64,000 nucleotides of DNA from Candidatus Poribacteria bacterium (GCA_022824835.1 JAJDZB010000073.1:23933-87932), one strand, 5' to 3'; positions 15,700 to 59,889 are shown, numbered from the stretch's first letter. Numbers and translations: made by a program. The notes: generated by a model not told the origin, from the letters alone.

Positions 15700-15752
15700 G
15701 CAGAATACGCGTTTGGTATTCTGCATTAGTTAGAAACAGCACCTACCGGGGG
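15700..15752. repeat. Hairpin GCAGAATACGCGTTTGGTATTCTGC followed by a degenerate REP core
   Basis: A related hairpin GCAGAATGCGCGTTTGGCATTCCGC occurs at 24511-24535. Confidence 0.7.
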
Positions 15753-15768
15753 AGTGCGTAAGTTCTGC

Positions 15769-16257
15769 TTATGACTTTGATATTACTTTGCGTATCCAAC
15801 GGTTTAATGTAATATACACACTGACGACGACGGCTATTGCAACAAATACGAGATCGAACCATTCCATTCTGTCAATCATGTGTTCCCATTTTGTGTTTCC
15901 AGAATAAACTGTTTTGGCAGAAGGCATGGCTTGTTCAAGTGTCAGCGTTGGGTTCTTTTCAATCATTTGATGAGCGATCTGTGTAACTGCATTCAATTGA
16001 ACGTCAAGATATTTCCCAACTAAAATGCCGAGAATTGAGAAAAACGCGGCACCTATAGCTAAAAGGATCCAATTTTTCTGATTGTCTGTATCAAGGGACT
16101 GACTTCCTGTAAATACAATACCGATACCGCACAGTGCGCCGATAGCCACTGCCACAAACCCGGCATTACTACCAGTCCATTTAATATAATTCGCCCATAG
16201 TACACCTCCTATAATTGCGCCGATGAGTCCACCTAAGGGAGCCGTTATTGCCTTCAT
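15769..16257 (-). CDS. Hypothetical integral membrane protein
   Basis: Four predicted hydrophobic helices. Overlaps the gatA stop by 4 nt. Confidence 0.45.
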
Positions 16258-17735
16258 ATTTTATCCTCTGTTTCTGCTATTATCGGTCTCTTTAAATGGT
16301 GGTCTGTATTCTGTTGATATGTATATGCTGTCCGTAAAAGAGTTTCTTCGTCGAATGGTGGCGTAAGTAGCTGCAAGCCTACAGGTAAACCGCTTTTTAC
16401 GTAACCGCATGGGACAGAAATCCCTGGTAATCCTGCATGACTCGCTGGTGTCGTCATGACATCACAAAGGTACATCTGAAGTGGATCTGCAGTCCGCTCA
16501 CCGATTTTGAATGCGGGTGTTGGTGAAGTTGGTGTAGCGATGACATCCACTTTCTCAAAAGCCGCATCAAAGTCAGATTTTATCAGTGTTCGTACCTTTT
16601 GCGCTTTACGATAGTATGCGTCTTGGTAGCCTGCACTGAGTGCAAAAGTTCCGAGCATGATCCGTCTTTTAACTTCCTGTCCAAAACCTTCTGTTCGGGT
16701 TTTTTTATACATATCTATCAAGTCTACAGGTTCTTCAGTCCGGTATCCGTAGCGTACGCCATCATACCTTGCCAGGTTTGCGCTTGCTTCTGCGGGTGCA
16801 ATAATATAGTATGTTGCGATTGCAAAGTCGGTATGTGGAAGTGAGATTTCCTCTAAGGATGCCCCCAATTGCTCTAACTTTTGGATAGCTGAATGAACTA
16901 GTTCTGCTACCTCAGCATCTAAACCTTCAGCGAAATACTCTTTCGGTACACCGATTCGTAATCCTTGAACATCGTTAATAAGGCTCTCTGTGAAATCTGG
17001 CACGGGAACATCAACAGATGTAGAGTCTAACGGGTCCTTACCACAGATGGCATTGAGTACTAACGCGCAATCTGTTACGTCTTTTGTAAAGGGACCTATC
17101 TGGTCAAGTGATGAAGCGAAGGCGATGAGTCCGTAACGTGAAATGCGTCCATAAGTCGGTTTCATACCGACGACCCCACACAGTGCAGCGGGTTGGCGAA
17201 TGGAACCACCAGTATCTGAACCTAAAGAGCAGATGGCTGAGTCCGCAGCTACAACAGCAGCTGAACCGCCACTTGACCCTCCTGGTATTGTTTCTAAATC
17301 CCAGGGATTGTGTGTTATCTGATAAGCAGAATTCTCGGTAGATGACCCCATTGCGAATTCGTCCATGTTCGTTTTACCTATCATGACTGCGTTCTGTTTT
17401 TGTAGTTTTGCCATGACAGTTGCATTGTAAGGCGGTTTAAAGTTACTGAGTATTTTTGATGCACACGTCGTCCGGACATCTTTGGTGCATATCACATCTT
17501 TTATTGCTATCGGTATGCCGGCAAGTGGTGGCATCTCATTTCCATTCTGAAATCCAACGTCTGCATTACTCGCTTGTTCTAAAGCTAACGCCTTTGTTAA
17601 TGTCAAGTAACCCTTCACACTCGGTTCAACCTCATCTATACGTGCATATATTGATTCAGTCAATTCGACAGCAGTGATTTCACGTTCCTTGAGTTTTTCG
17701 TGTAGTTCGTGTACTGTTAATTGATTTAGGGACAT
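16254..17735 (-). CDS. gatA: Asp-tRNA(Asn)/Glu-tRNA(Gln) amidotransferase subunit A
   Basis: Amidase signature [26 protein letters not shown]. Follows gatC. Confidence 0.95.
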
Positions 17736-17746
17736 TCAACAACTCC

Positions 17747-18043
17747 TTACGTCACATCAATTACTCTCGGGACGGCAAAATATCCTTCGGCTGTTTCAGG
17801 TGCGTTTTCAAGGACTGCATCAATAGGTAACGACTTTTTTACGACATCAGGTTTTGTAATATTTTGAAGCGGATGTATATGTGATGTAGGTGGGACATCT
17901 TCCGTATCCAATTCATTCAATTTTCCAATATAATCTAAGATTCTGCCGAGTTGTTCGGTGAAATGTTGTGTCTCTTCTGCATCAAATTCAAGCCTCGCTA
18001 AGTTTGCGACGTGGCTTACATCTTTAGGGGTGATGGTTGCCAT
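17747..18043 (-). CDS. gatC: Asp-tRNA(Asn)/Glu-tRNA(Gln) amidotransferase subunit C
   Basis: 98 aa, VSHVANLARLEF..EE, LNELDTEDVPPTSH. Confidence 0.9.
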   Translation of the reverse strand: MATITPKDVSHVANLARLEFDAEETQHFTEQLGRILDYIGKLNELDTEDVPPTSHIHPLQNITKPDVVKKSLPIDAVLENAPETAEGYFAVPRVIDVT

Positions 18044-18092
18044 ATCAATAAAACCTTCCTATACTTTTATACTTTTTGCCTGACAGCGTTAT

Positions 18093-20252
18093 TTATACCG
18101 CATGCAAAGGTGCTAATTCAACATCAAATTGTTTTGAGCCCGCTCTATCAAATCTAACGACTACATAGGTATTTTGACCGTATTCTTTGAGTTTAACTAC
18201 CTTTCCCCTGCCAAAACTGGGGTGGAATACAATTTGATCAACAGTGTATAAGTTTTCTTCTTCTTCAATATATCTAATTTCTTGTTGTGAAAACGCTGAG
18301 TTGTAACGGTCAACGTGTTTGATAAGATGTTGCGGTATTTCTTCAATGAAACGTGAAGGGGTTCTATAGTCTGTTCCTCCCCAACTTCTACGTGAATCTG
18401 CATGGACAAGATAAAGTTGTTCCATTGCTCGTGTAATGCCAACATAACATAGTCTGCGTTCTTCCTCTAAACCCGCTTCCACATTCTCATCGATAGACCG
18501 TTTATGTGGCAAATATCCTTCCTCCATACCGACGATAAAAACAAATGGAAATTCTAACCCTTTTGCACTATGTAATGTCATCAAGGTTACCACATTAGTT
18601 TCATCGGTGTTATCGTCATCTTCCATCGTATCAATATCAGCGATAAGAGCGACATTTTCCAGATAATCGGCAAGTGTTGGTTCTTCAGCAATCATTTCAT
18701 ATTCACAGATTGCGTTCATCAGTTCATCAATATTCTCAACTCTATTTTGTGCTTCTATGGTGCGCTGTTCTTTGAAGTTATCGCGATACCCGGTTGTATT
18801 TAGGATATGTTCAAGCACTTCTGCAGGTAAGTCATCTGCCTCGTACGGGTCGAACAATTTTGCGAATTTGCGTATTTTTTCTTTTATGCCGGCGTTTATT
18901 TTTGGAATTTCGTCAACGCGGTCTATCGCCTCAATGAGGGGTATTTCTTCGTTATCAGCAAAGGTCATCAGCCTTTCAAGTGATGTTGCCCCGATACCGC
19001 GTGTTGGAACATTGATTATCCGTCTGAGACTAATTGAGTCAAAAGGATTACACATGACGCGGAGATATGCCAGTAGGTCTTTAATCTCCATGCGGTCATA
19101 GAAACCGAGTCCGCCGACGATCTGATAAGGTATGTTTGCTGTGCGCAATGCTTCTTCAAAAACTCTTGATTGTGCATTTGTCCGATAAAAGATAGCGAAA
19201 TCTCTATAATCAACCCCTTCCGCATTCCAATCCTCAATTTTTGTTCCGACAAAACCGGCTTCATCGTTCTCATCCATAGCTTCATAGCAGGTAATAAGTT
19301 CACCTTCTTCATTTTTTGTCCAGAGTTTTTTGGCTTTCCTTGCTTTGTTGTTCTGAACGACGCTCCATGCTGCATTTAATATATTCTGCGTTGATCGGTA
19401 ATTCTGTTCCAGTCGTAATACATGTGTGTTGGGATAATGGTTCTCGAAATTGAGTATGTTGTGTATGTTTGCGCCTCGGAAACCGTATATGGATTGGTCA
19501 TCATCACCGACGACACAGACATTCTTTCTTTCCCCTGCCAGTAGACGCACTAACTCATATTGGGTTTGATTTGTGTCTTGATATTCATCAACAAGCACAT
19601 GTAGGAGTTTCTGATTGTAGTATTTTAGTACTTCGGGAAATTTTTTGAATAACGTTACAGTAAAGTTGAGCAGATCATCAAAATCTAATGCGTTGTTCTT
19701 ACGAAGTGTTTCCTGATATAGAGGGTAGACCTTTGCTACGATCTTTTCATAGTATCCATCGGCGTTATTCTCATAGTTTATTGGAGAAATGTTGTTATTT
19801 TTTGCCTTGCTGATCAGATCATGAATGGTTCGTGGGTTATACTGTTTGTCATCTAATCCAGCAGATCTGATTATATCCTTAACGACTGTAACTTGTTCAC
19901 TTTTATCGTAGATGGTAAAATTTTTAGTAAAACCGTCGAGTTTTTCGATATCTCTGCGTAAGATACGTGCACACGTCGAGTGGAAAGTAGAGACCCATAA
20001 GTTTTTACCGATCCCTTCTTCAACGAGTACATCTAATCTTTCTTTCATTTCGTTTGCAGCCTTATTGGTAAAGGTAACAGCAAGTATTCGGAATGGAGAG
20101 ATGCGGTGGTGTTTTATTAGATATGCCACTCGGTGTGTGATAACGCGCGTTTTTCCGCTCCCCGCACCGGAAAGTATCAGAAGGGGACCATCAGTGTGCA
20201 GCACAGCTTCACGTTGCACATTATTTAAGGAACTCAAGAGTTTATCGGACAA
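18093..20252 (-). CDS. pcrA: ATP-dependent DNA helicase PcrA/UvrD (SF1)
   Basis: LNNVQREAV, Walker A SGAGSGKTRV, VDEYQDTN, QNYRST, VTLMTLHSAKGLEFP, LCYVGITRA. TTG start. Confidence 0.9.
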   Translation of the reverse strand: MSDKLLSSLNNVQREAVLHTDGPLLILSGAGSGKTRVITHRVAYLIKHHRISPFRILAVTFTNKAANEMKERLDVLVEEGIGKNLWVSTFHSTCARILRRDIEKLDGFTKNFTIYDKSEQVTVVKDIIRSAGLDDKQYNPRTIHDLISKAKNNNISPINYENNADGYYEKIVAKVYPLYQETLRKNNALDFDDLLNFTVTLFKKFPEVLKYYNQKLLHVLVDEYQDTNQTQYELVRLLAGERKNVCVVGDDDQSIYGFRGANIHNILNFENHYPNTHVLRLEQNYRSTQNILNAAWSVVQNNKARKAKKLWTKNEEGELITCYEAMDENDEAGFVGTKIEDWNAEGVDYRDFAIFYRTNAQSRVFEEALRTANIPYQIVGGLGFYDRMEIKDLLAYLRVMCNPFDSISLRRIINVPTRGIGATSLERLMTFADNEEIPLIEAIDRVDEIPKINAGIKEKIRKFAKLFDPYEADDLPAEVLEHILNTTGYRDNFKEQRTIEAQNRVENIDELMNAICEYEMIAEEPTLADYLENVALIADIDTMEDDDNTDETNVVTLMTLHSAKGLEFPFVFIVGMEEGYLPHKRSIDENVEAGLEEERRLCYVGITRAMEQLYLVHADSRRSWGGTDYRTPSRFIEEIPQHLIKHVDRYNSAFSQQEIRYIEEEENLYTVDQIVFHPSFGRGKVVKLKEYGQNTYVVVRFDRAGSKQFDVELAPLHAV

Positions 20253-20485
20253 AAAACGCCTCCGCGAAATGGGATAGGTAGCAACCTATAAAAGTATACG
20301 CAATTTGGATTTTCTTTGCAAGTGAATTTGTTTGATATTCTCAAAAGTTGTTGAGATTCTTTTGGGTTTAGTTTGTGAAAATGCGACATGATTTCTTTTA
20401 GCATCTGTCTTTAATATCGCCAATCTTGATCGTAATCGCTAACACATTGAAACTATTCGAACGCTGTTACTCGCTATGAGTTCAT

Positions 20486-20524
20486 ACAAAAAACAGGTAG
20501 ATACCCTAAAAGTTTATCTACCTG
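20486..20524 (-). terminator. Rho-independent terminator after PD40 paralog 1
   Basis: Stem CAGGTAGATA/TATCTACCTG (10 bp) followed on the minus strand by a T6 run, 46 nt past the stop. Confidence 0.7.
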
Positions 20525-20569
20525 TCTAAACGTTGACTTCGTTTTCTGAATATTGATTTCGTTAAGGTG

Positions 20570-21670
20570 TCATTTTTTTAACTTTCCCCACTGGGTCTTT
20601 TTTTTCCCAGCAGGCGTAACCGACAGCACATCATCGCTAATCCAGTCTACCGTCTCGTAATTTAATGCATCATGTGTGAGTTGTGTGAGTTCGTCTGTCT
20701 CAAGATCATATTTGTAAATATGAAAATTCTGTATTGGTGTTCCAACGGGACGTATTACGTCGAGTAAGACGGGGCGGGCGGTAAAAATGACCGATTTACC
20801 ATCTTCACCCATCCAGTCTAAACTACCACCATTCAAGTTGGGGGGTATATTCAACTCTTTGATGGTGCTGCCATTTTTGTCGCAAATAATATAGCGATAT
20901 GCCTTATGGATAAGGTGGATAAATGTCACATCCTCCTGTTTCTCCAATTCCCAAGTATATTCGTGTTGTATATAAACAACCCTTTGGCTATCGGGCGACC
21001 ATTTGGGATACGATCTATCAATAACCAATACTCCAGTGCCGCCTATTTGCTGAGGCATAGGGATAAACGGTCTAATCTGTGTGCCATTAGGCTTCATCAC
21101 CCAAATAGTCGTTCCCTGTCCACCTATATCTTTTGATGTAGCATACACAATATACCTGCCATCCGGAGACCAATCCTTTGCATTCATACTGACATCATTG
21201 GCTATCGTTGTAACCTGTCCACTTTTAAAGTTGTATTGTCTGACACTACCGTGAGGAGCACTTCCGTGTGCATGCGGCTTTTGGTAAAAGTGATTAAAAA
21301 CAAAAGACCTGCCATCAGATGAAAAAGCACCTCCTCCCTCATATTCACGTTTCTCTCCCCTATCTGTTTTTTTCGTGATCTGTTGTTGATTTGTGCCATC
21401 CGTATCCATGATAAAAAAGGCATACCCGTAAGACTGCGGGCGAACGCCTTCTTCCCTCACCTGCTTCCGAAACAGGATTTTTTTACCGTCCGGGAACCAT
21501 CTGGCATATCCCGCTCTGTCCCCTTCAGTCAACAATGTGATGTTACTGCCATCATCATCCATCACATAGATACCGGACTGTCCATCGGGACTCGCGTCAA
21601 AAAGGATTTTAGCATTCGCTATCACTCCGAAGCATAGCAGCATGACCAGACTGGTTGTTAATAAACGCAT
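20570..21670 (-). CDS. Secreted PD40/TolB-like beta-propeller protein, paralog 1, with basic C-terminal tag
   Basis: Signal peptide. Repeated WxPDG / SPDG blade motifs (WFPDGKKILF, FSSDGRSFVF, WSPDGRYIVY, WSPDSQRVVY). C-terminus DWISDDVLSVTPAGKKKTQWGKLKK. Confidence 0.7.
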   Translation of the reverse strand: MRLLTTSLVMLLCFGVIANAKILFDASPDGQSGIYVMDDDGSNITLLTEGDRAGYARWFPDGKKILFRKQVREEGVRPQSYGYAFFIMDTDGTNQQQITKKTDRGEKREYEGGGAFSSDGRSFVFNHFYQKPHAHGSAPHGSVRQYNFKSGQVTTIANDVSMNAKDWSPDGRYIVYATSKDIGGQGTTIWVMKPNGTQIRPFIPMPQQIGGTGVLVIDRSYPKWSPDSQRVVYIQHEYTWELEKQEDVTFIHLIHKAYRYIICDKNGSTIKELNIPPNLNGGSLDWMGEDGKSVIFTARPVLLDVIRPVGTPIQNFHIYKYDLETDELTQLTHDALNYETVDWISDDVLSVTPAGKKKTQWGKLKK

Positions 21671-21694
21671 CGTTTTTCTCCCTAAATGTAATGT

Positions 21695-21720
21695 AATGGA
21701 GGGGAACGATCCCCTCCATT
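21695..21720 (-). promoter_or_regulatory. 10-bp-stem hairpin in the 5' leader of PD40 paralog 1
   Basis: AATGGAGGGG-AACGAT-CCCCTCCATT, 24 nt before the ATG. No T-run follows. Confidence 0.5.
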
Positions 21721-21760
21721 TCTTACTCCTTTGAAGTAGTATAATCGCCTTATTTATAGT

Positions 21761-21866
21761 TAAAGGATATTAGCTAAATGTATTTAATTAATATATGCGT
21801 TTCATCTAAAATTCTTTAGCTTTTTTTACATAGAGATCCACGATGTGGTACTATCCGACTTTCGGA
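21761..21866. repeat. Exact 106-bp direct repeat, copy A (upstream of PD40 paralog 1)
   Basis: TAAAGGATATTAGCTAAATG...CCGACTTTCGGA is identical base for base to 25275-25380. Confidence 0.95.
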
Positions 21867-22381
21867 GGGCAGTCAGTGATACCCTGCCCAACAGATCTTT
21901 CTTCAATCGTTCATTCATCTTCCTGAATTTCAAACACAACAGTATCCCTCTTCTTTTCATAAAAGATCATTTTTATATCAATGGTTTGAAGTATATGATG
22001 GAAACATTAAAAATACTTCCGCAAAAACCTGAAGATATTGTTATTGAACAAATTATTGGACACCTAAGTTCTATTGGTGCTATTCATAACACACAAGCTA
22101 ATCTAAATCCAGGATAATTGGCGAAGGTATTGTTATTTGAAAAAAATACCATATTGACGATAGTAATATATAGAATAAATTTGAGGGTATTAACTAAATA
22201 ATGATGCTTTGTTGCATTTCTCCGATATTTAAGATGTCGTAGACATTTCCATTTACTCTGAATTTTGCAAATAAGGCAATCGTCAGATTCGAGTTAACAA
22301 ACAGGATCGTAAATCTATAGGAATAACTCTTTTTGAATACTCTTTACTTGCACAGAAAACCGAAATCAGTCCACGGAGTTT

Positions 22382-23455
22382 TCAATTGTCACGGGACCTT
22401 GATATCCTTACAATCTTTTTTATCGTTCCCCACCGGGTCTTTTTTTTTCCAGCAGGTGTAACAGAAAGTACATCATCACTTATCCAATCTAAACCAGTAA
22501 CCCGTCCAGAAGGACTTGCCAACTGTGTGACATTTCTACTTTTTATATCATACTTATAGATATTGGAAGGTTGTCCACTATCACGAAACCGAACTTTTAG
22601 TTCCACCTCAAATGCATTGAAAACGACAGATTCACCGTTATCCATCCAATCAAGACCGTATGCATGTAAGTTTTTTGGTATCTGCAACTTCCGGGTTGTC
22701 TCGTCCTGTCTATTGTAAATAAAATAGTAATACCCTTGAGGAATATAAAATATCACGCCCTTCTCGTCTTTCCCGAGTGTTTGGAAAGTCTGTTTATACA
22801 GTATCTGTTTACTATCGGGATGCCATCTTGGTGAAAAGTAACTAATGAGCTGACCGTTGTCAGGAGGTCTTGGCAATAGTTCACGCGGATGGCCACCATC
22901 CGATTTCATAATCATGATAGTATTACCACTTACACCCGCAGTTTGAGATGTCGTAAATACGATGTGGTGACCATCAGGAGACCATTTTGGGAAGTCTGCA
23001 AGTGAATCGTAAATCTTTTTGATTTTTCCACTTTTTAGATTCATCATGCAGACACTTTTTTTCTTGTTCCTATTGTTAATTACTTCATATCGACTAAAGA
23101 TGACAGATTCACTGTCTGGTGAAAACGCTGGATAGCTATCTCTTCCAAAAGGTTTTACGGGTGGTGTAAGTTGCCGGATATTCGTACCGTCTGCTGCCAT
23201 TATAAATAGATGCCTTTGTTGAGAATCACGACCTGGTGCTGCACGTCTCGAAAACACTATCTGTTTACCGTTGGGCGACCAGCAAGGGTCGGTTGGACTG
23301 AACAGATCTGTTAGCAACATCTCATTACTACCATCGTCATCCATAACATATATACTATAAATGCCATCGCGTTTAGAACTATAAATTATCTTAGCGTCAA
23401 GCAGTTTTGCAAACAGCAGTAGAATTACGCAGAAGGTGTAAAAGTATAAACGCAC
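22382..23455 (-). CDS. Secreted PD40/TolB-like beta-propeller protein, paralog 2, with basic C-terminal tag
   Basis: Signal peptide. WSPNGKQIVF, FSPDSESVIF, WSPDGHHIVF, WHPDSKQILY. C-terminal DWISDDVLSVTPAGKKKTRWGTIKK plus 10 extra residues. GTG start with GGAG upstream. Confidence 0.7.
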   Translation of the reverse strand: MRLYFYTFCVILLLFAKLLDAKIIYSSKRDGIYSIYVMDDDGSNEMLLTDLFSPTDPCWSPNGKQIVFSRRAAPGRDSQQRHLFIMAADGTNIRQLTPPVKPFGRDSYPAFSPDSESVIFSRYEVINNRNKKKSVCMMNLKSGKIKKIYDSLADFPKWSPDGHHIVFTTSQTAGVSGNTIMIMKSDGGHPRELLPRPPDNGQLISYFSPRWHPDSKQILYKQTFQTLGKDEKGVIFYIPQGYYYFIYNRQDETTRKLQIPKNLHAYGLDWMDNGESVVFNAFEVELKVRFRDSGQPSNIYKYDIKSRNVTQLASPSGRVTGLDWISDDVLSVTPAGKKKTRWGTIKKIVRISRSRDN

Positions 23456-23471
23456 TGTATTTCTCCTTTAG

Positions 23472-23501
23472 ATAAGGAAGGAGACGATGCCCCTTCCTTA
23501 T
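23472..23501 (-). promoter_or_regulatory. 10-bp-stem hairpin in the 5' leader of PD40 paralog 2
   Basis: ATAAGGAAGG-AGACGATGCC-CCTTCCTTAT, 16 nt before the GTG start. The ACGAT loop element is shared with 21695-21720. Confidence 0.5.
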
Positions 23502-23522
23502 GGATAAATGTTATTGGGTATT

Positions 23523-24314
23523 CTACTTCCATTCAAAATCATGATCAGTCATAATATCCCAATTGTCTTTCTTAAAATCACCGCCAACGTTTCCTTTAAC
23601 ATAGTGTCGAATATATACATCAGAGTTGTAACTACCCAGATCTCCGCCGCTAATATCTATCTGCATAGATTCCTCATAACTCTCATTATAAGGACCGTAG
23701 GTACCGCCGTTTGCGGTTATTCCCTGCGTCGGTGGATTAGATTCTTTCGTATCTGTAAAACCATTTGGACCGGTGACTGTATGTCTGAATCTGGAGGTGC
23801 TAGTCCACTCAAATTCAGTATCGTTCTGAGCATAAACGGATGCCTCAAATGTTATATAAGGATGTTCATAGGAGTGGCGACTGAGTTCCGTCTCTCCATA
23901 AACACCGGTGTCTGATCCATACCCACTATTTACATCAGGTTTATACACTTTAAAAGTCTTTGTGACGACAATGTCGTCGCCTACAGACTGCATAACATTT
24001 AATTTAAGTGTATGTTCTGTCCCTTGTAGACTGCCGCCAAAATTACTCTCATCATACCAGAGAAAGTCATAGGTTCGCTTACCGTCACCATAAGCTCTAT
24101 CTATCCAGGTATCATCCAGGTAATAGTCTATGCCATGATACGGTTCACTCGTTTGCACATCAACCATCATTATAAAATAATCGTTCGAACTTAAAGAAGA
24201 ATAAACATATAATGACTCAATCTCAATATCGGCATTACTTGTGTTGATAAACCCAAGCAGAATTATAGTGCAGAACAGGATTATTGATATTAATCCTTTG
24301 CTAAATCTTAACAT
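23523..24314 (-). CDS. Hypothetical secreted protein
   Basis: Signal peptide/TM at the N-terminus, Tyr/Asp/Gly-rich mature part, no family recognised. Lies between the sigma gene and PD40 paralog 2. Confidence 0.5.
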   Translation of the reverse strand: MLRFSKGLISIILFCTIILLGFINTSNADIEIESLYVYSSLSSNDYFIMMVDVQTSEPYHGIDYYLDDTWIDRAYGDGKRTYDFLWYDESNFGGSLQGTEHTLKLNVMQSVGDDIVVTKTFKVYKPDVNSGYGSDTGVYGETELSRHSYEHPYITFEASVYAQNDTEFEWTSTSRFRHTVTGPNGFTDTKESNPPTQGITANGGTYGPYNESYEESMQIDISGGDLGSYNSDVYIRHYVKGNVGGDFKKDNWDIMTDHDFEWK

Positions 24315-24419
24315 TTTCTTACTCCTTTTCAGAATAAAAAAGGTACATTATTTCAATACCTTCGTTAAAAATCTACAGTTCTTCATACTACGTTGGAAAT
24401 CACCCTTATACTTTTAAAC

Positions 24420-24452
24420 ATGCGTTTCATCAGAAAAAGTTTAGCTTTTTTT
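24420..24452 (-). promoter_or_regulatory. Third copy of the 33-bp core ATGCGTTTCATC-N8-TTTAGCTTTTTTT shared with the 106-bp repeats
   Basis: The same two blocks with the same 8-nt spacing occur at 21795-21827 and 25309-25341. Here they lie about 106 nt upstream of the secreted hypothetical gene start at 24314. Confidence 0.55.
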
Positions 24453-24581
24453 CGCAAATTCTTTAGTAAGTGAGAAAACATAATAAAAAGTACATTCAAA
24501 AACGGGTTTTGCAGAATGCGCGTTTGGCATTCCGCAGGAAGGCGAAACAACGCTTCTGTAAAAATACAAACATTCGTTAGA

Positions 24582-25242
24582 TTATTGTTCAGTATCACGA
24601 TACGGATTACCTCTTACTCTTTCAAGTGCGGCTAAGTATGCTTTGCCAAGTTTCTCCAGTGCAGATTTGGTGAGCTGACTCACCCGTCCTTTTGACACTT
24701 CCAAGATTTCGGCTATCTCTGCTCCATTAAACTCTTGGAAAAACTTCATTTCAATCACGGCGCGTTCCTTTTGTGTCAGTCTATTCATTAATTTCGGCAA
24801 GTGCTTTCTTAAGGTTTCAATTTCTATCTGGTGTGTCACGGTTTCTGCTACATCCTCTATTGCACCCGCTTGTGCGGTTAAGTTATCAACCAACGGATTA
24901 TGTTTACAGTTAGCGTCATCATCCATATCTTCTTGATGCGTAAAAGGACTCTGAAGCAATACTTTTTTACGTTCTGACCAGAGCCGAGTGCAGACACGCG
25001 CCTTAATGAAACGTAGTATAACTCGCGCCACTGGGGTGATCTGGGTCATACTTCGGTGTTTCTTCCAACACTGTCAAAAATGCAAGTTGACGCAAATCCT
25101 CTTTAAAACTTCTCAACTGTGCATTGTTGCCTACGGCACAATCGGCACAGTGGTGTATTGACGATTCTGCAGAAAGCGGATTTTGTGGAACAACATAGAA
25201 TGGACATTTGCCTCTGTTATGCGGACCTCTTTGTTCTGTCAT
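24582..25242 (-). pseudogene. Group-3 (FliA/WhiG-like) sigma-70 family factor, reading frame split by a single-nucleotide frameshift near 25003-25010
   Basis: ORF 25003..25242 ends ..LRQLAFLTVLEETPKYDPDHPSGASYTTFH* (region 2.1/2.2-like). ORF 24582..25049 continues in another frame with IKARVCTRLW (region 2.3-like) and the region 4 HTH LTQKERAVIEMKFF..EIAEILEVSKGRVSQLTKSALEKL. The two frames overlap at ACG TTT CAT TAA GGC. Confidence 0.6.
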
Positions 25243-25274
25243 CGGTTTTACCTCCTAACAATAAAGTGAACCGA

Positions 25275-25380
25275 TAAAGGATATTAGCTAAATGTATTTA
25301 ATTAATATATGCGTTTCATCTAAAATTCTTTAGCTTTTTTTACATAGAGATCCACGATGTGGTACTATCCGACTTTCGGA
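25275..25380. repeat. Exact 106-bp direct repeat, copy B (upstream of the sigma gene)
   Basis: Identical to 21761-21866, offset 3514 bp. Confidence 0.95.
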
Positions 25381-25903
25381 ATGCTACAAAGTCATGAACT
25401 CTTTCCACAACACTTAGAAACGATCCAGACAGGAACACATATCCTGGCAACAACAGCTGTCGCTATCTGTCTTCTTCGCGGCGTGCCGGTGCTAATGGAG
25501 GTATAACATACATCCAAACCGCATGCACATACAACACACCAACCGCAAAACACCATTCAAGCATTGAAGAGACGTAGACTCTCTTTTTTAGGGATCTCTT
25601 TGTTTAACGAATGGGTGTTGCTAAAACTTTACACACCTATAGGTGTCATTTTAGTGAAAAACGTTAGTGGGTTTGATACACCTTTCGCCCCTCTGGGGCT
25701 TGCTGTTGGTTGGATCACTGTGGACTATACACCTTTCGCCTCTCTGAGGCTTTGGAAAATCACAAATCAGCACCCGCTGAATGCCATACGCGCATTCATA
25801 GCGTTGATTTCGGTGCGGAAGGTATGGGGTAAAATCGAATTTATATAGCCTGTCAACAAGAGGGAATATCCTTAAATTGACGCCTATGGTGGTTGTATAA
25901 AGA

Positions 25904-26090
25904 AGCACAATCAAGGATGAATGTGCTACAGCACAATCAGGATGTATGTTGTGTGGAGAGGGGTAATGGAGGATGAATGTTGTAGAAAGAGGCACAATCT
26001 AACAGAATGTGCTACAGTTCAAATACTGGGGCACAATCAAGGATGAATGTGCTACAGTTCAAATACTGGGCACAATCTAACAGAATGTCT
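25904..26090. repeat. Array of GCACAATC-N-AATGTGCTACA(GTTCAAATACTGG) units
   Basis: Five units, two of them about 40 bp and almost identical (25991-26030 and 26031-26070). Confidence 0.85.
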
Positions 26091-26230
26091 ATTATTGTGG
26101 CGAAGGTATTGTCTTGCAGACAATATATAAACAGTGATATAATTTTCAAATCTCTTACAATCGTCCAAGACTATTTAAGGTCGGCAGTGAAGTAAAAACT
26201 GTGGCATCGTATCAGGATCGGAGTAGCATA

Positions 26231-59169: not shown

Positions 59170-59889
59170 ATGAAGAAATTAGCAATTTTATTCACAATTG
59201 CTTGTTTAACCATTGCACCAACCGCATTCGCTCAAGATTGGCAGCCGGCAGGTGATCAATGGATTGAAAGATGGTGGGCACTCGATTTAGTCACGAATAC
59301 TGGCGGGTTCAACAACTCTGCCGCTCAAGACTATCTTGACGCCGGCACCAGTGGCGATTATAATAATTATTCAGTATCCACACGGTACGGTGCTGGACTG
59401 ACTGGAAAAGGGGCAGTTTACTTGCCAGATAACGGCGGTACGCTCGTCTGGTCTGTCGTTGATCTTGACACAGAGGCGGGAAATAACATGTCCCTGGCTT
59501 TCGGTCCTAATCCTTTGGACGAATTTACTTGGCACGGTATCCTGCTTATCTTGTCTCCAGATGAACGCACAACCACAATGTATCCATCACATGATGATTA
59601 TGCAGAAATATGGTTGAACGGAAGTAAGGTGTATGACAATCCTGCCTGGACAGGTGGTGTTAGAAACGTAACGCGGCCAACAGAGGTAGACCTAATCCAA
59701 GGTGAAAACTTCCTCCACTATAAGTGCGGCGAAGGCGGTGGTGGTGATTATATTAATTTGCGTTTTGATGAAGCTGATACCGACCTGCAGATCGCACCAA
59801 CACTGGATGGACAATTCTTGAATGTGCTTACACCAGTTGAACCCCGCAATAAAGTTACTACAACTTGGGCAGATATTAAACGAAAATAA
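59170..59889 (+). CDS. Secreted hypothetical beta-sandwich-like protein with a basic C-terminal tag
   Basis: Signal peptide ending AFAQD. AEIWLNGSKVYDN..GENFLHYKCGEGGGGDYINLRF resembles PA14/lectin-like folds (weak). C-terminus LTPVEPRNKVTTTWADIKRK. Confidence 0.5.
   Translation: MKKLAILFTIACLTIAPTAFAQDWQPAGDQWIERWWALDLVTNTGGFNNSAAQDYLDAGTSGDYNNYSVSTRYGAGLTGKGAVYLPDNGGTLVWSVVDLDTEAGNNMSLAFGPNPLDEFTWHGILLILSPDERTTTMYPSHDDYAEIWLNGSKVYDNPAWTGGVRNVTRPTEVDLIQGENFLHYKCGEGGGGDYINLRFDEADTDLQIAPTLDGQFLNVLTPVEPRNKVTTTWADIKRK

Follow-up and report, generated by a model that had tools for sequence, protein, structure and literature searches.

A Poribacteria sigma factor and a predicted promoter shared by its own gene and neighbouring genes for exported proteins

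Candidatus Poribacteria are uncultivated sponge symbionts. The window analysed here, a 64,000-nt stretch of one such genome (GCA_022824835.1 JAJDZB010000073.1:23933-87932), holds a cluster of minus-strand genes encoding, in order, a sigma factor, a hypothetical protein and two PD40 beta-propeller paralogs (paralog 2, then paralog 1; Table 1). The sigma gene, the hypothetical gene and PD40 paralog 1 are each preceded by the same 33-bp bipartite core element, and two of these copies lie within a 106-bp stretch that occurs twice. A preliminary description of this DNA had proposed an alternative sigma factor that drives its own gene and a local set of secreted proteins. Is the element part of a promoter that is read by the sigma factor encoded beside it, and how did the repeat arise? 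Comparative genomics supports the proposal. On the sequence evidence, the answer to the first question is probably a local regulon that depends on the sigma factor, is positively autoregulated and serves exported proteins. No account of a Poribacteria sigma-factor regulon or its promoter was found in the literature searched.

We found exactly three copies of the core, ATGCGTTTCATC-N8-TTTAGCTTTTTTT, in the 64 kb even when three mismatches were allowed (21795-21827, 24420-24452 and 25309-25341), and 100 dinucleotide-preserving shuffles gave an expectation of none by chance. A position weight matrix (PWM) built from genomes other than the window picked out the same three sites only, with the scores given in Table 1; the best of 20 shuffles reached 12.1. 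All three sites are on the coding strand, and their -10-like hexamers end 62 nt (sigma gene), 101 nt (hypothetical gene) and 120 nt (PD40 paralog 1) upstream of the start codons. The gene coordinates reported earlier and the base-for-base identity of the two 106-bp copies were both borne out. A standard TTGACA-N17-TATAAT promoter was ruled out, as a generic sigma-70 consensus scan did not pick out the three sites.

One element of the earlier description did not hold, namely that the core contains the -10. The real -10 is a TATAAT-like hexamer that shares a single base with the core (25309, 21795 and 24420), and the conserved 'GATGAAACGCAT' is mostly spacer and extended -10. The core takes in the A-tract and -35 box as well as most of the spacer, making up the upstream two-thirds of a predicted 40-nt promoter. 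At the promoter of the hypothetical gene (P-hyp) the -10 position is occupied by TGTTTA (24415-24420; variant ATGTTTA), of an 'ATGT' class instead of ATAT. The ATGT variant was also found at secondary promoters of L003, L005, L007, L017, L030, L035 and L052 (L-numbers denote comparison loci or genomes) and at one sigma promoter, that of L034.

The full promoter emerged from the DNA upstream of sigma homologues, with about 55 homologue loci compared; the PWM scan, with a site threshold of at least 22, covered a sigma-anchored sample of 52 loci (935 kb). The consensus was A6-RWR-CTAAAG-WWTTT-N-TGAA-cG-t-ATATAAT, and most homologues were preceded by the same order of elements: an A-tract, (G/A)CTAAA(G/C), WWTTT, a partly conserved TGAA..cG and ATATAAT. 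The hexamer was located exactly 19 nt after CTAAA in 62 of the 78 sites that had an A-tract, CTAAA and a good hexamer, corresponding to a TAAAGN-N17-TATAAT geometry. In a frequency matrix of 62 unique sites, information content fell to about zero outside -9..+32. Some positions of this matrix were not used in site selection, and these were found to be strongly conserved (T+8 and T+9, 0.94; A+17, 0.84; A+23, 0.94; T+24, 0.97; T+26, 0.95).

A site was present within 300 nt upstream, on the same strand, for 40 of the 52 sigma homologues, which share 41-97% amino acid identity. The 507 kb spanning -5 kb to +5.7 kb of sigma starts contained 86 of the 87 sites. The remaining 428 kb contained one. 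As an unanchored control, loci were retrieved without reference to any gene, by searching metagenome and viral contigs with a loose degenerate pattern and rescoring the matches with the PWM (at least 211 loci, 1.54 Mb). The pattern is too unspecific in AT-rich DNA and was used solely as a specificity control after rescoring. Among the matches listed, three sites had a PWM score above 40; a sigma homologue is encoded in three of these loci only, and those are where the sites lie. In many loci of the anchored sample a further site follows the sigma start by about 650-800 nt and is predicted to drive the next gene. P-hyp lies at +798 nt, an offset equal to that of the secondary promoters of L039, L040 and L044. 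In several loci a divergent copy was located just upstream, before an oppositely oriented gene.

Promoter spacers were near-identical across the targets within a genome or lineage (e.g. GTTTTCTCAGCGAGRCGCATATAAT) and different between lineages (L039, L040, L043 and L044; L017; L007). This pattern suggests that promoters were copied repeatedly, or else that the spacer evolves in step with the sigma paralog that reads it.

The first open reading frame (ORF) downstream of the sites was most often the sigma gene itself (38), followed by TM263, a membrane-anchored family of about 260 aa (10), STAS-domain proteins (7), PD40 propellers (4 directly, with further ones within operons) and the hyp263 family (3). 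PD40 genes adjoin sigma in about 19-24 loci and, together with STAS, LamG-like, TM263 and hyp263 genes, they are the recurrent neighbours within +/-4 kb. The gene after sigma has a promoter of its own, and its coding sequence opens at once with a transmembrane or signal segment. Describing the target set as secreted beta-propellers, as had been done for the window, captures the recurrent PD40 genes and is incomplete, STAS-domain genes being recurrent members in other genomes as well. The reported lack of a flagellar or anti-sigma gene nearby holds more widely: genes for flagella, chemotaxis, FlgM or RsiG are not among the recurrent families near the sigma homologues.

What kind of sigma factor is this? 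In the window its gene is split into ORFs of 79 and 155 aa by one extra T (TT to TTT at 25009-25011; ACGTTCATT to ACGTTTCATT), and the repaired protein is 99% identical to P0001, an intact orthologue used for comparison. In Pfam it matched Sigma70_r4 (E=1e-13), with weaker scores for r2 (16.5 vs a cut-off of 24) and Sigma70_ECF (19 vs 21.1); Sigma70_r3 gave no match at E<=0.1. The sole NCBIfam model passed was the generic superfamily model TIGR02937 (57.7 vs a cut-off of 42.9). The best model was FliA_WhiG (TIGR02479), with 68.5 bits vs a cut-off of 189.6 and covering residues 129-199 only. The top PDB sequence matches were FliA (E=4.5e-11) and WhiG (1.5e-10), in region 4 and weakly in region 2, and the region 4.2 profile 'vseGRVSQltksal' aligns to 'VSESRVSQLHSQ' of FliA. 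In an AF2 model (pLDDT 80) a short segment at the N-terminus precedes a sigma2 of three helices, and a disordered linker (98-115) and one long helix lead to a sigma4 helix-turn-helix; the predicted architecture is a two-domain sigma2-sigma4 build without a sigma3 domain. Foldseek of the model against the PDB retrieved groups 1, 3 and 4 at similar low TM-scores and did not discriminate between them. The preliminary FliA/WhiG-type label, given to region 4, is therefore apt there; the whole protein fails the family cut-off, lacks sigma3 and is not a member of FliA.

The family is confined to one lineage as far as names go: more than 140 homologues were found (about 48-99% identity), and all those with an organism name are Candidatus Poribacteria. 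Fifty-one of the 52 retrieved loci are from Poribacteria, the exception being a marginal 49-residue match in an Actinomycetota metagenome-assembled genome. A profile search of 1.84 billion representative proteins returned 20 clusters at E<=1e-30 and a more distant second tier, whose one organism-named cluster is again from Poribacteria. Genomes often have 2-4 paralogs. Four cysteines, C13, C32, C35 and C84 (C32-x2-C35), show conservation of at least 90%, or no variation at all, in both sigma subfamilies, the second tier included. A paralog 92% identical to the sigma factor lies beside a CBASS/GmrSD/integrase island in L003 (2960-9400), and another, 86% identical, beside a CRISPR-Cas locus in L004 (1-3100). 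Sigma cassettes thus occupy variable, island-like contexts.

We compared the protein and its putative promoter with known sigma systems. The E. coli sigma-28 consensus is TAAAGTTT-n11-GCCGATAA (PMC2859248), in which the -10 bases that define specificity are -13C and -12G (bioRxiv 10.1101/2020.01.02.893370). The Poribacteria -35 box, cTAAAG-WW-T (CTAAAG-WW-TTT), is essentially the extended sigma-28 -35 (TAAAGTTT), and the region 4.2 helix S-E-x-R-V-S-Q-L of sigma-28 is shared as S-E-G-R-V-S-Q-L. In contrast, the Poribacteria -10 is cG-t-ATATAAT and not GCCGATAA: the best register gave 5/8 matches with n12, a spacer about 1 nt longer, and did not have the -13C/-12G signature. Thus, of the sigma-28-type -35/-10 layout suggested at first, the -35 box stands, while the -10 is TATAAT-like. 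The FliA-like recognition helix in region 4 fits a sigma-28-type -35 box, TAAAG(W)(W)T, and the divergent region 2 agrees with the differing -10. The Poribacteria protein also differs from sigma-28 in having no sigma3 and an N-terminal cysteine-bearing segment, and in its putative targets, which are secreted propellers and STAS proteins rather than flagellar genes. Separately, seven regularly spaced sigma-28-like promoters, GCTAAAGTTTTCT..TGTCGATATTATATA (TAAAGTTT-N10-GTCGATAT), were seen on the predicted viral contig IMGVR_UViG_3300030419_006839 (L227 4958-11843, L182), where no homologue of the Poribacteria sigma factor was detected.

The likeness to extracytoplasmic function (ECF, group 4) sigma factors lies in the two-domain sigma2-sigma4 build of about 170 core residues, which passes TIGR02937, and in a motif upstream of the factor's own gene with a small local regulon, as in the logic of ECF groups (PMC7826278). 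On the other hand, the -35 is not of the ECF 'AAC' type, region 4 is closest to group 3 and there is no co-encoded anti-sigma factor. ECF classification 2.0 contains FliA-, SigF- and SigH-like groups that bridge groups 3 and 4, and does not mention Poribacteria (PMC7826278). An alternative sigma factor with an autoregulated local regulon is a known type of system, here lineage-specific. What is unusual is the predicted sigma-28-type -35 recognition without sigma3 and the conserved four-cysteine site: the protein would be a natural hybrid, a sigma-28-like -35 reader in an ECF-like two-domain body.

Cysteines within a sigma factor, with no visible anti-sigma factor, are also found in CorE2/ECF238 and OrbS (PMC7826278, PMC9023288), the latter being another sigma factor with an on-board cysteine sensor (PMC9023288). 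The known cysteine-rich extensions, in ECF238/CorE2 and ECF287/288, are C-terminal (PMC7826278), and so is the cluster in OrbS, whereas the Poribacteria cysteines are N-terminal with one in region 2.3/2.4. The likeness suggests that the Poribacteria factor may be under built-in metal or redox control, with the four cysteines as a putative on-board switch; together with the lack of a recurring anti-sigma factor, this would point to a new built-in control mechanism.

In the mechanism that we propose, RNA polymerase carrying the adjacent sigma factor would recognise the 40-nt promoter, and sigma would positively autoregulate its gene while also transcribing between one and a few units nearby. Such units would encode exported or surface proteins (PD40 propellers, tandem beta-sandwich proteins, LamG-like and membrane-anchored proteins) and also STAS-domain proteins. 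In the window, the sigma promoter (P-sigma) would serve the sigma gene, P-hyp would drive the hypothetical gene with PD40 paralog 2, and an extra copy of P-sigma would act before PD40 paralog 1. We infer both the reading of the motif by sigma itself, not another factor, and the role of the STAS proteins.

Several observations weigh against this mechanism. With its sigma gene frameshifted, the window's strain cannot operate it in cis. The -10 of P-hyp is poor, and 12 of the 52 sigma homologues have no detectable site within 300 nt upstream. The enrichment of sites near sigma genes is partly circular, owing to the sigma-anchored sampling, with the far halves of the loci serving as its control, and the genome-wide site count is an extrapolation from +/-10 kb flanks. 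No anti-sigma factor or RsbW-like kinase recurs within +/-4 kb of the sigma homologues. Finally, the -10 is close to the housekeeping TATAAT, which leaves room for a sigma-70 holoenzyme with a CTAAAG-binding activator.

This last point can be developed into an alternative in which the promoter is a housekeeping (sigma-70/RpoD) one, the A-tract and CTAAAG box bind a separate activator or repressor, and the sigma gene is one of the targets. The essentially canonical ATATAAT would then be explained, as would the resemblance of the A-tract to an UP element, and the conservation of the spacer within one genome could reflect an extra protein contact. We nevertheless regard it as unlikely: no other DNA-binding protein recurs in the sigma neighbourhoods, and sigma is the sole factor that is always present, including in the unanchored scan among the matches listed. 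Moreover, the fixed 19-nt distance to the hexamer is the behaviour of a -35 element, and the box itself is the one read by the closest characterised relatives of sigma region 4. The core could also be a dispersed mobile or repetitive element, such as a miniature inverted-repeat transposable element (MITE) or the end of an insertion sequence (IS), that produced the 106-bp identity by transposition. A transposase remnant next to the extra copy and the variable contexts of sigma cassettes, including the integrase and defence island in L003, would fit this idea. We give it very little weight, given that terminal inverted repeats and target duplications are both absent, that orientation and distance to start codons are constant, that sites are nearly absent away from sigma genes and that the motif is kept where sigmas share just 41-60% identity and the flanking DNA is randomised.

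Regulation by the adjacent sigma factor thus remains the reading that we favour, and the frameshift has to be accommodated within it. The frameshift was also present in an independent short-read assembly (Logan, SRR16351696, k=31 graph), and the orthologues in L001, L003 and L005 are intact. Programmed frameshifting is unlikely, as none of the close orthologues has the additional T and the run of Ts is just 3 nt long. All three promoters and all targets are intact despite the frameshift. The loss of sigma may be very recent, or a paralog may supply its activity, leaving the regulon either orphaned or paralog-served.

We turn to the second question, the origin of the repeat. The exact identity had been taken as a sign of recent duplication or gene conversion, and the comparison with related genomes supports this. 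The third promoter copy is absent from the two closest relatives, L001 and L005 (CBDBFT010000001.1, the closest reference genome), and is hence strain-specific and recent. L001, a near-identical strain with a 99% identical sigma, has two sites only, at the sigma and hypothetical genes, and lacks window positions 21720-22383. The copy before PD40 paralog 1 is part of a 207-bp match (98%) to L005 9762-9968 that extends about 100 bp past the 106-bp identity, while the window's own sigma upstream region is about 70% similar to these extra 100 bp. Within the strain-specific insert, 21867-21966 is collinear with L005 sigma-upstream DNA and the next 46 bp match the 5'-UTR of the L005 hypothetical gene. 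Positions ~21987-22136 (plus-strand ORF 21845-22117) hold what is left of a DDE_5 (IS) transposase gene, namely part of its 3' end: the C-terminal 44 residues match the final part of a 451-aa ORF of L053 (Pfam DDE_5, E=6e-36) at 73% identity, with a 152-bp DNA match of 85%. At the other side of the insert, the 3' end of PD40 paralog 2 (22382-22420) differs from that in L001 (7858-7965), giving 357 aa vs 392 aa; the insert replaced the last ~35 codons, and the breakpoint is just past a C-terminal WG.IK-type tail described below.

On the simplest reading, the extra copy is what remains of a second sigma cassette, similar to that of L005, from which the sigma and hypothetical genes have been deleted. 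Such a deletion would leave the promoter fused to PD40 paralog 1, and the 106 bp would later have been made uniform with the promoter of the resident sigma gene, or recently exchanged with it. A present-day case of the cassette duplication proposed for the window is seen in L017 (9900-14300), where two tandem sigma copies 3.65 kb apart share the same promoter sequence and also the same divergent promoter sequence. The duplication, as distinct from the motif, might instead be an assembly chimera of two strains, one arranged as R-sigma-hyp-PD40-2 and the other, L005-like, as R-...-PD40-1. The data are metagenomic, and beyond the 106 bp the copy at PD40 paralog 1 resembles L005 more closely than does the DNA upstream of the window's own sigma gene. 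The Logan contigs end exactly 30 nt inside each copy (window 15734-21790 and 22003-25304), as expected of a true repeat in a k=31 graph, and the graph shows just that both repeat exits exist in the sample. However, both copies lie on the one window contig, separated by unique sequence (the IS remnant and PD40 paralog 2), a chimera would not create the deletions of the sigma and hypothetical genes in the second cassette, and tandem cassettes with identical promoters do exist in L017. We therefore consider a chimera improbable.

More tentatively, and with the odds against it, these features could be drawn together as an undescribed sigma class on the border of groups 3 and 4. Its region 4 and -35 box would be of the sigma-28 type, sigma3 would be missing, and the four cysteines would form a built-in sensor of metal or redox state in place of an anti-sigma factor. 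Its regulon would change by copy-and-paste of promoter modules of ~100-200 bp and of whole cassettes before secreted host-interaction genes. If so, the window would record one promoter-capture event and the loss of the local sigma gene. The strain-level rearrangements show rewiring of such regulons. The locus offers a concrete candidate sigma-promoter pair with a clear 40-nt consensus and defined target families in an uncultivated phylum, and this pair is a potentially orthogonal part for synthetic circuits. The cell surface or the host matrix may be where the secreted proteins of this putatively co-regulated set (beta-propeller, beta-sandwich and LamG-like) act.

Table 1. Features of the sigma cluster in the window (coordinates count from the first nucleotide of the 64,000-nt stretch).
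Feature	Coordinates	Strand	Remarks
Sigma-70-family gene	24582..25242	-	Poribacteria-specific family; frameshifted, repaired product 219 aa
P-sigma, sigma promoter	25301..25343	-	PWM 45.8; A-tract 25335-25341, CTAAAG 25328-25333, TATATT 25304-25309
P-hyp, promoter of hypothetical and PD40 paralog 2 operon	24412..24454	-	PWM 32.1; CTAAAC 24439-24444
Extra promoter copy before PD40 paralog 1	21787..21829	-	PWM 45.8; CTAAAG 21814-21819, TATATT 21790-21795
106-bp repeat copy at sigma gene	25275..25380	-	exact match to 21761..21866
106-bp repeat copy before PD40 paralog 1	21761..21866	-	missing at corresponding position in L001, L005
Strain-specific insert between the two PD40 genes	21867..22381	.	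absent from L001
Hypothetical protein, 263 aa, secreted or signal-anchored, tandem beta-sandwich	23523..24314	-	AF2 model pLDDT 88
PD40 (TolB-like) beta-propeller paralog 2, signal peptide	22382..23455	-	Pfam PD40 E=3e-12
PD40 (TolB-like) beta-propeller paralog 1, signal peptide	20570..21670	-	Pfam PD40 E=9e-12
GC-rich hairpin directly upstream of PD40 paralog 1 ribosome-binding site	21696..21719	-	-26.8 kcal/mol, z = -4.7
Rho-independent terminator closing cluster	20485..20527	-	13-bp stem then UUUUUUG

The hypothetical protein had no Pfam or NCBIfam match. We found 18 homologues, the single cluster with an organism name being Candidatus Poribacteria, and the top PDB match of its AF2 model was RbmA, a Vibrio biofilm scaffold (E=1e-7). 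The two PD40 paralogs are 39% identical to each other. Their genes, as well as those of LamG-like proteins, encode a shared C-terminal tail, (V/L)SP.GK(L/I).T.WG.IK (window 20570-20650, 22410-22490 and the ORF at 59170-59889), which accounts for a 76-bp DNA repeat of 86% at the 3' ends of the two PD40 genes. The tail was also seen in many other loci, e.g. L046, L047, L050, L020 and L051, and may be a lineage-specific C-terminal sorting or anchoring signal.

Scans of the window with Rfam (gathering threshold) and for tRNAs returned no matches, and the 106-bp repeat was ruled out as a known RNA element on the lack of an Rfam match. A GC-rich hairpin comparable to that before PD40 paralog 1 precedes the ribosome-binding site of paralog 2 (23472-23501; -18.6 kcal/mol, z = -4.4). 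Both have stems of 11-12 bp with no U-tract following, and may act in processing or stability, or as attenuators. The one at paralog 1 shows 100% conservation in both L001 and L005.

A palindromic hairpin, GAAT(G/A)CGCGTNTGG(C/T)ATTC, occurs in three intergenic copies (15703-15721, 24514-24532 and 25779-25797), two of which flank the sigma cassette as inverted copies; in appearance it is a dispersed REP-like or terminator-like hairpin. The corresponding 25-nt inverted repeat (24514-24538 and 25773-25797) was ruled out as a pair of mobile-element ends, since it is also found at 15703 and each copy is palindromic. Between the sigma promoter and thiD is a repeat-rich spacer (25650-26100) without an Rfam match; it is conserved in L001 and contains a 39-nt unit repeated 2.5 times (25991-26088) and several direct repeats of 20-33 nt such as GCACAATCAAGGATGAATGTGCTACAG.

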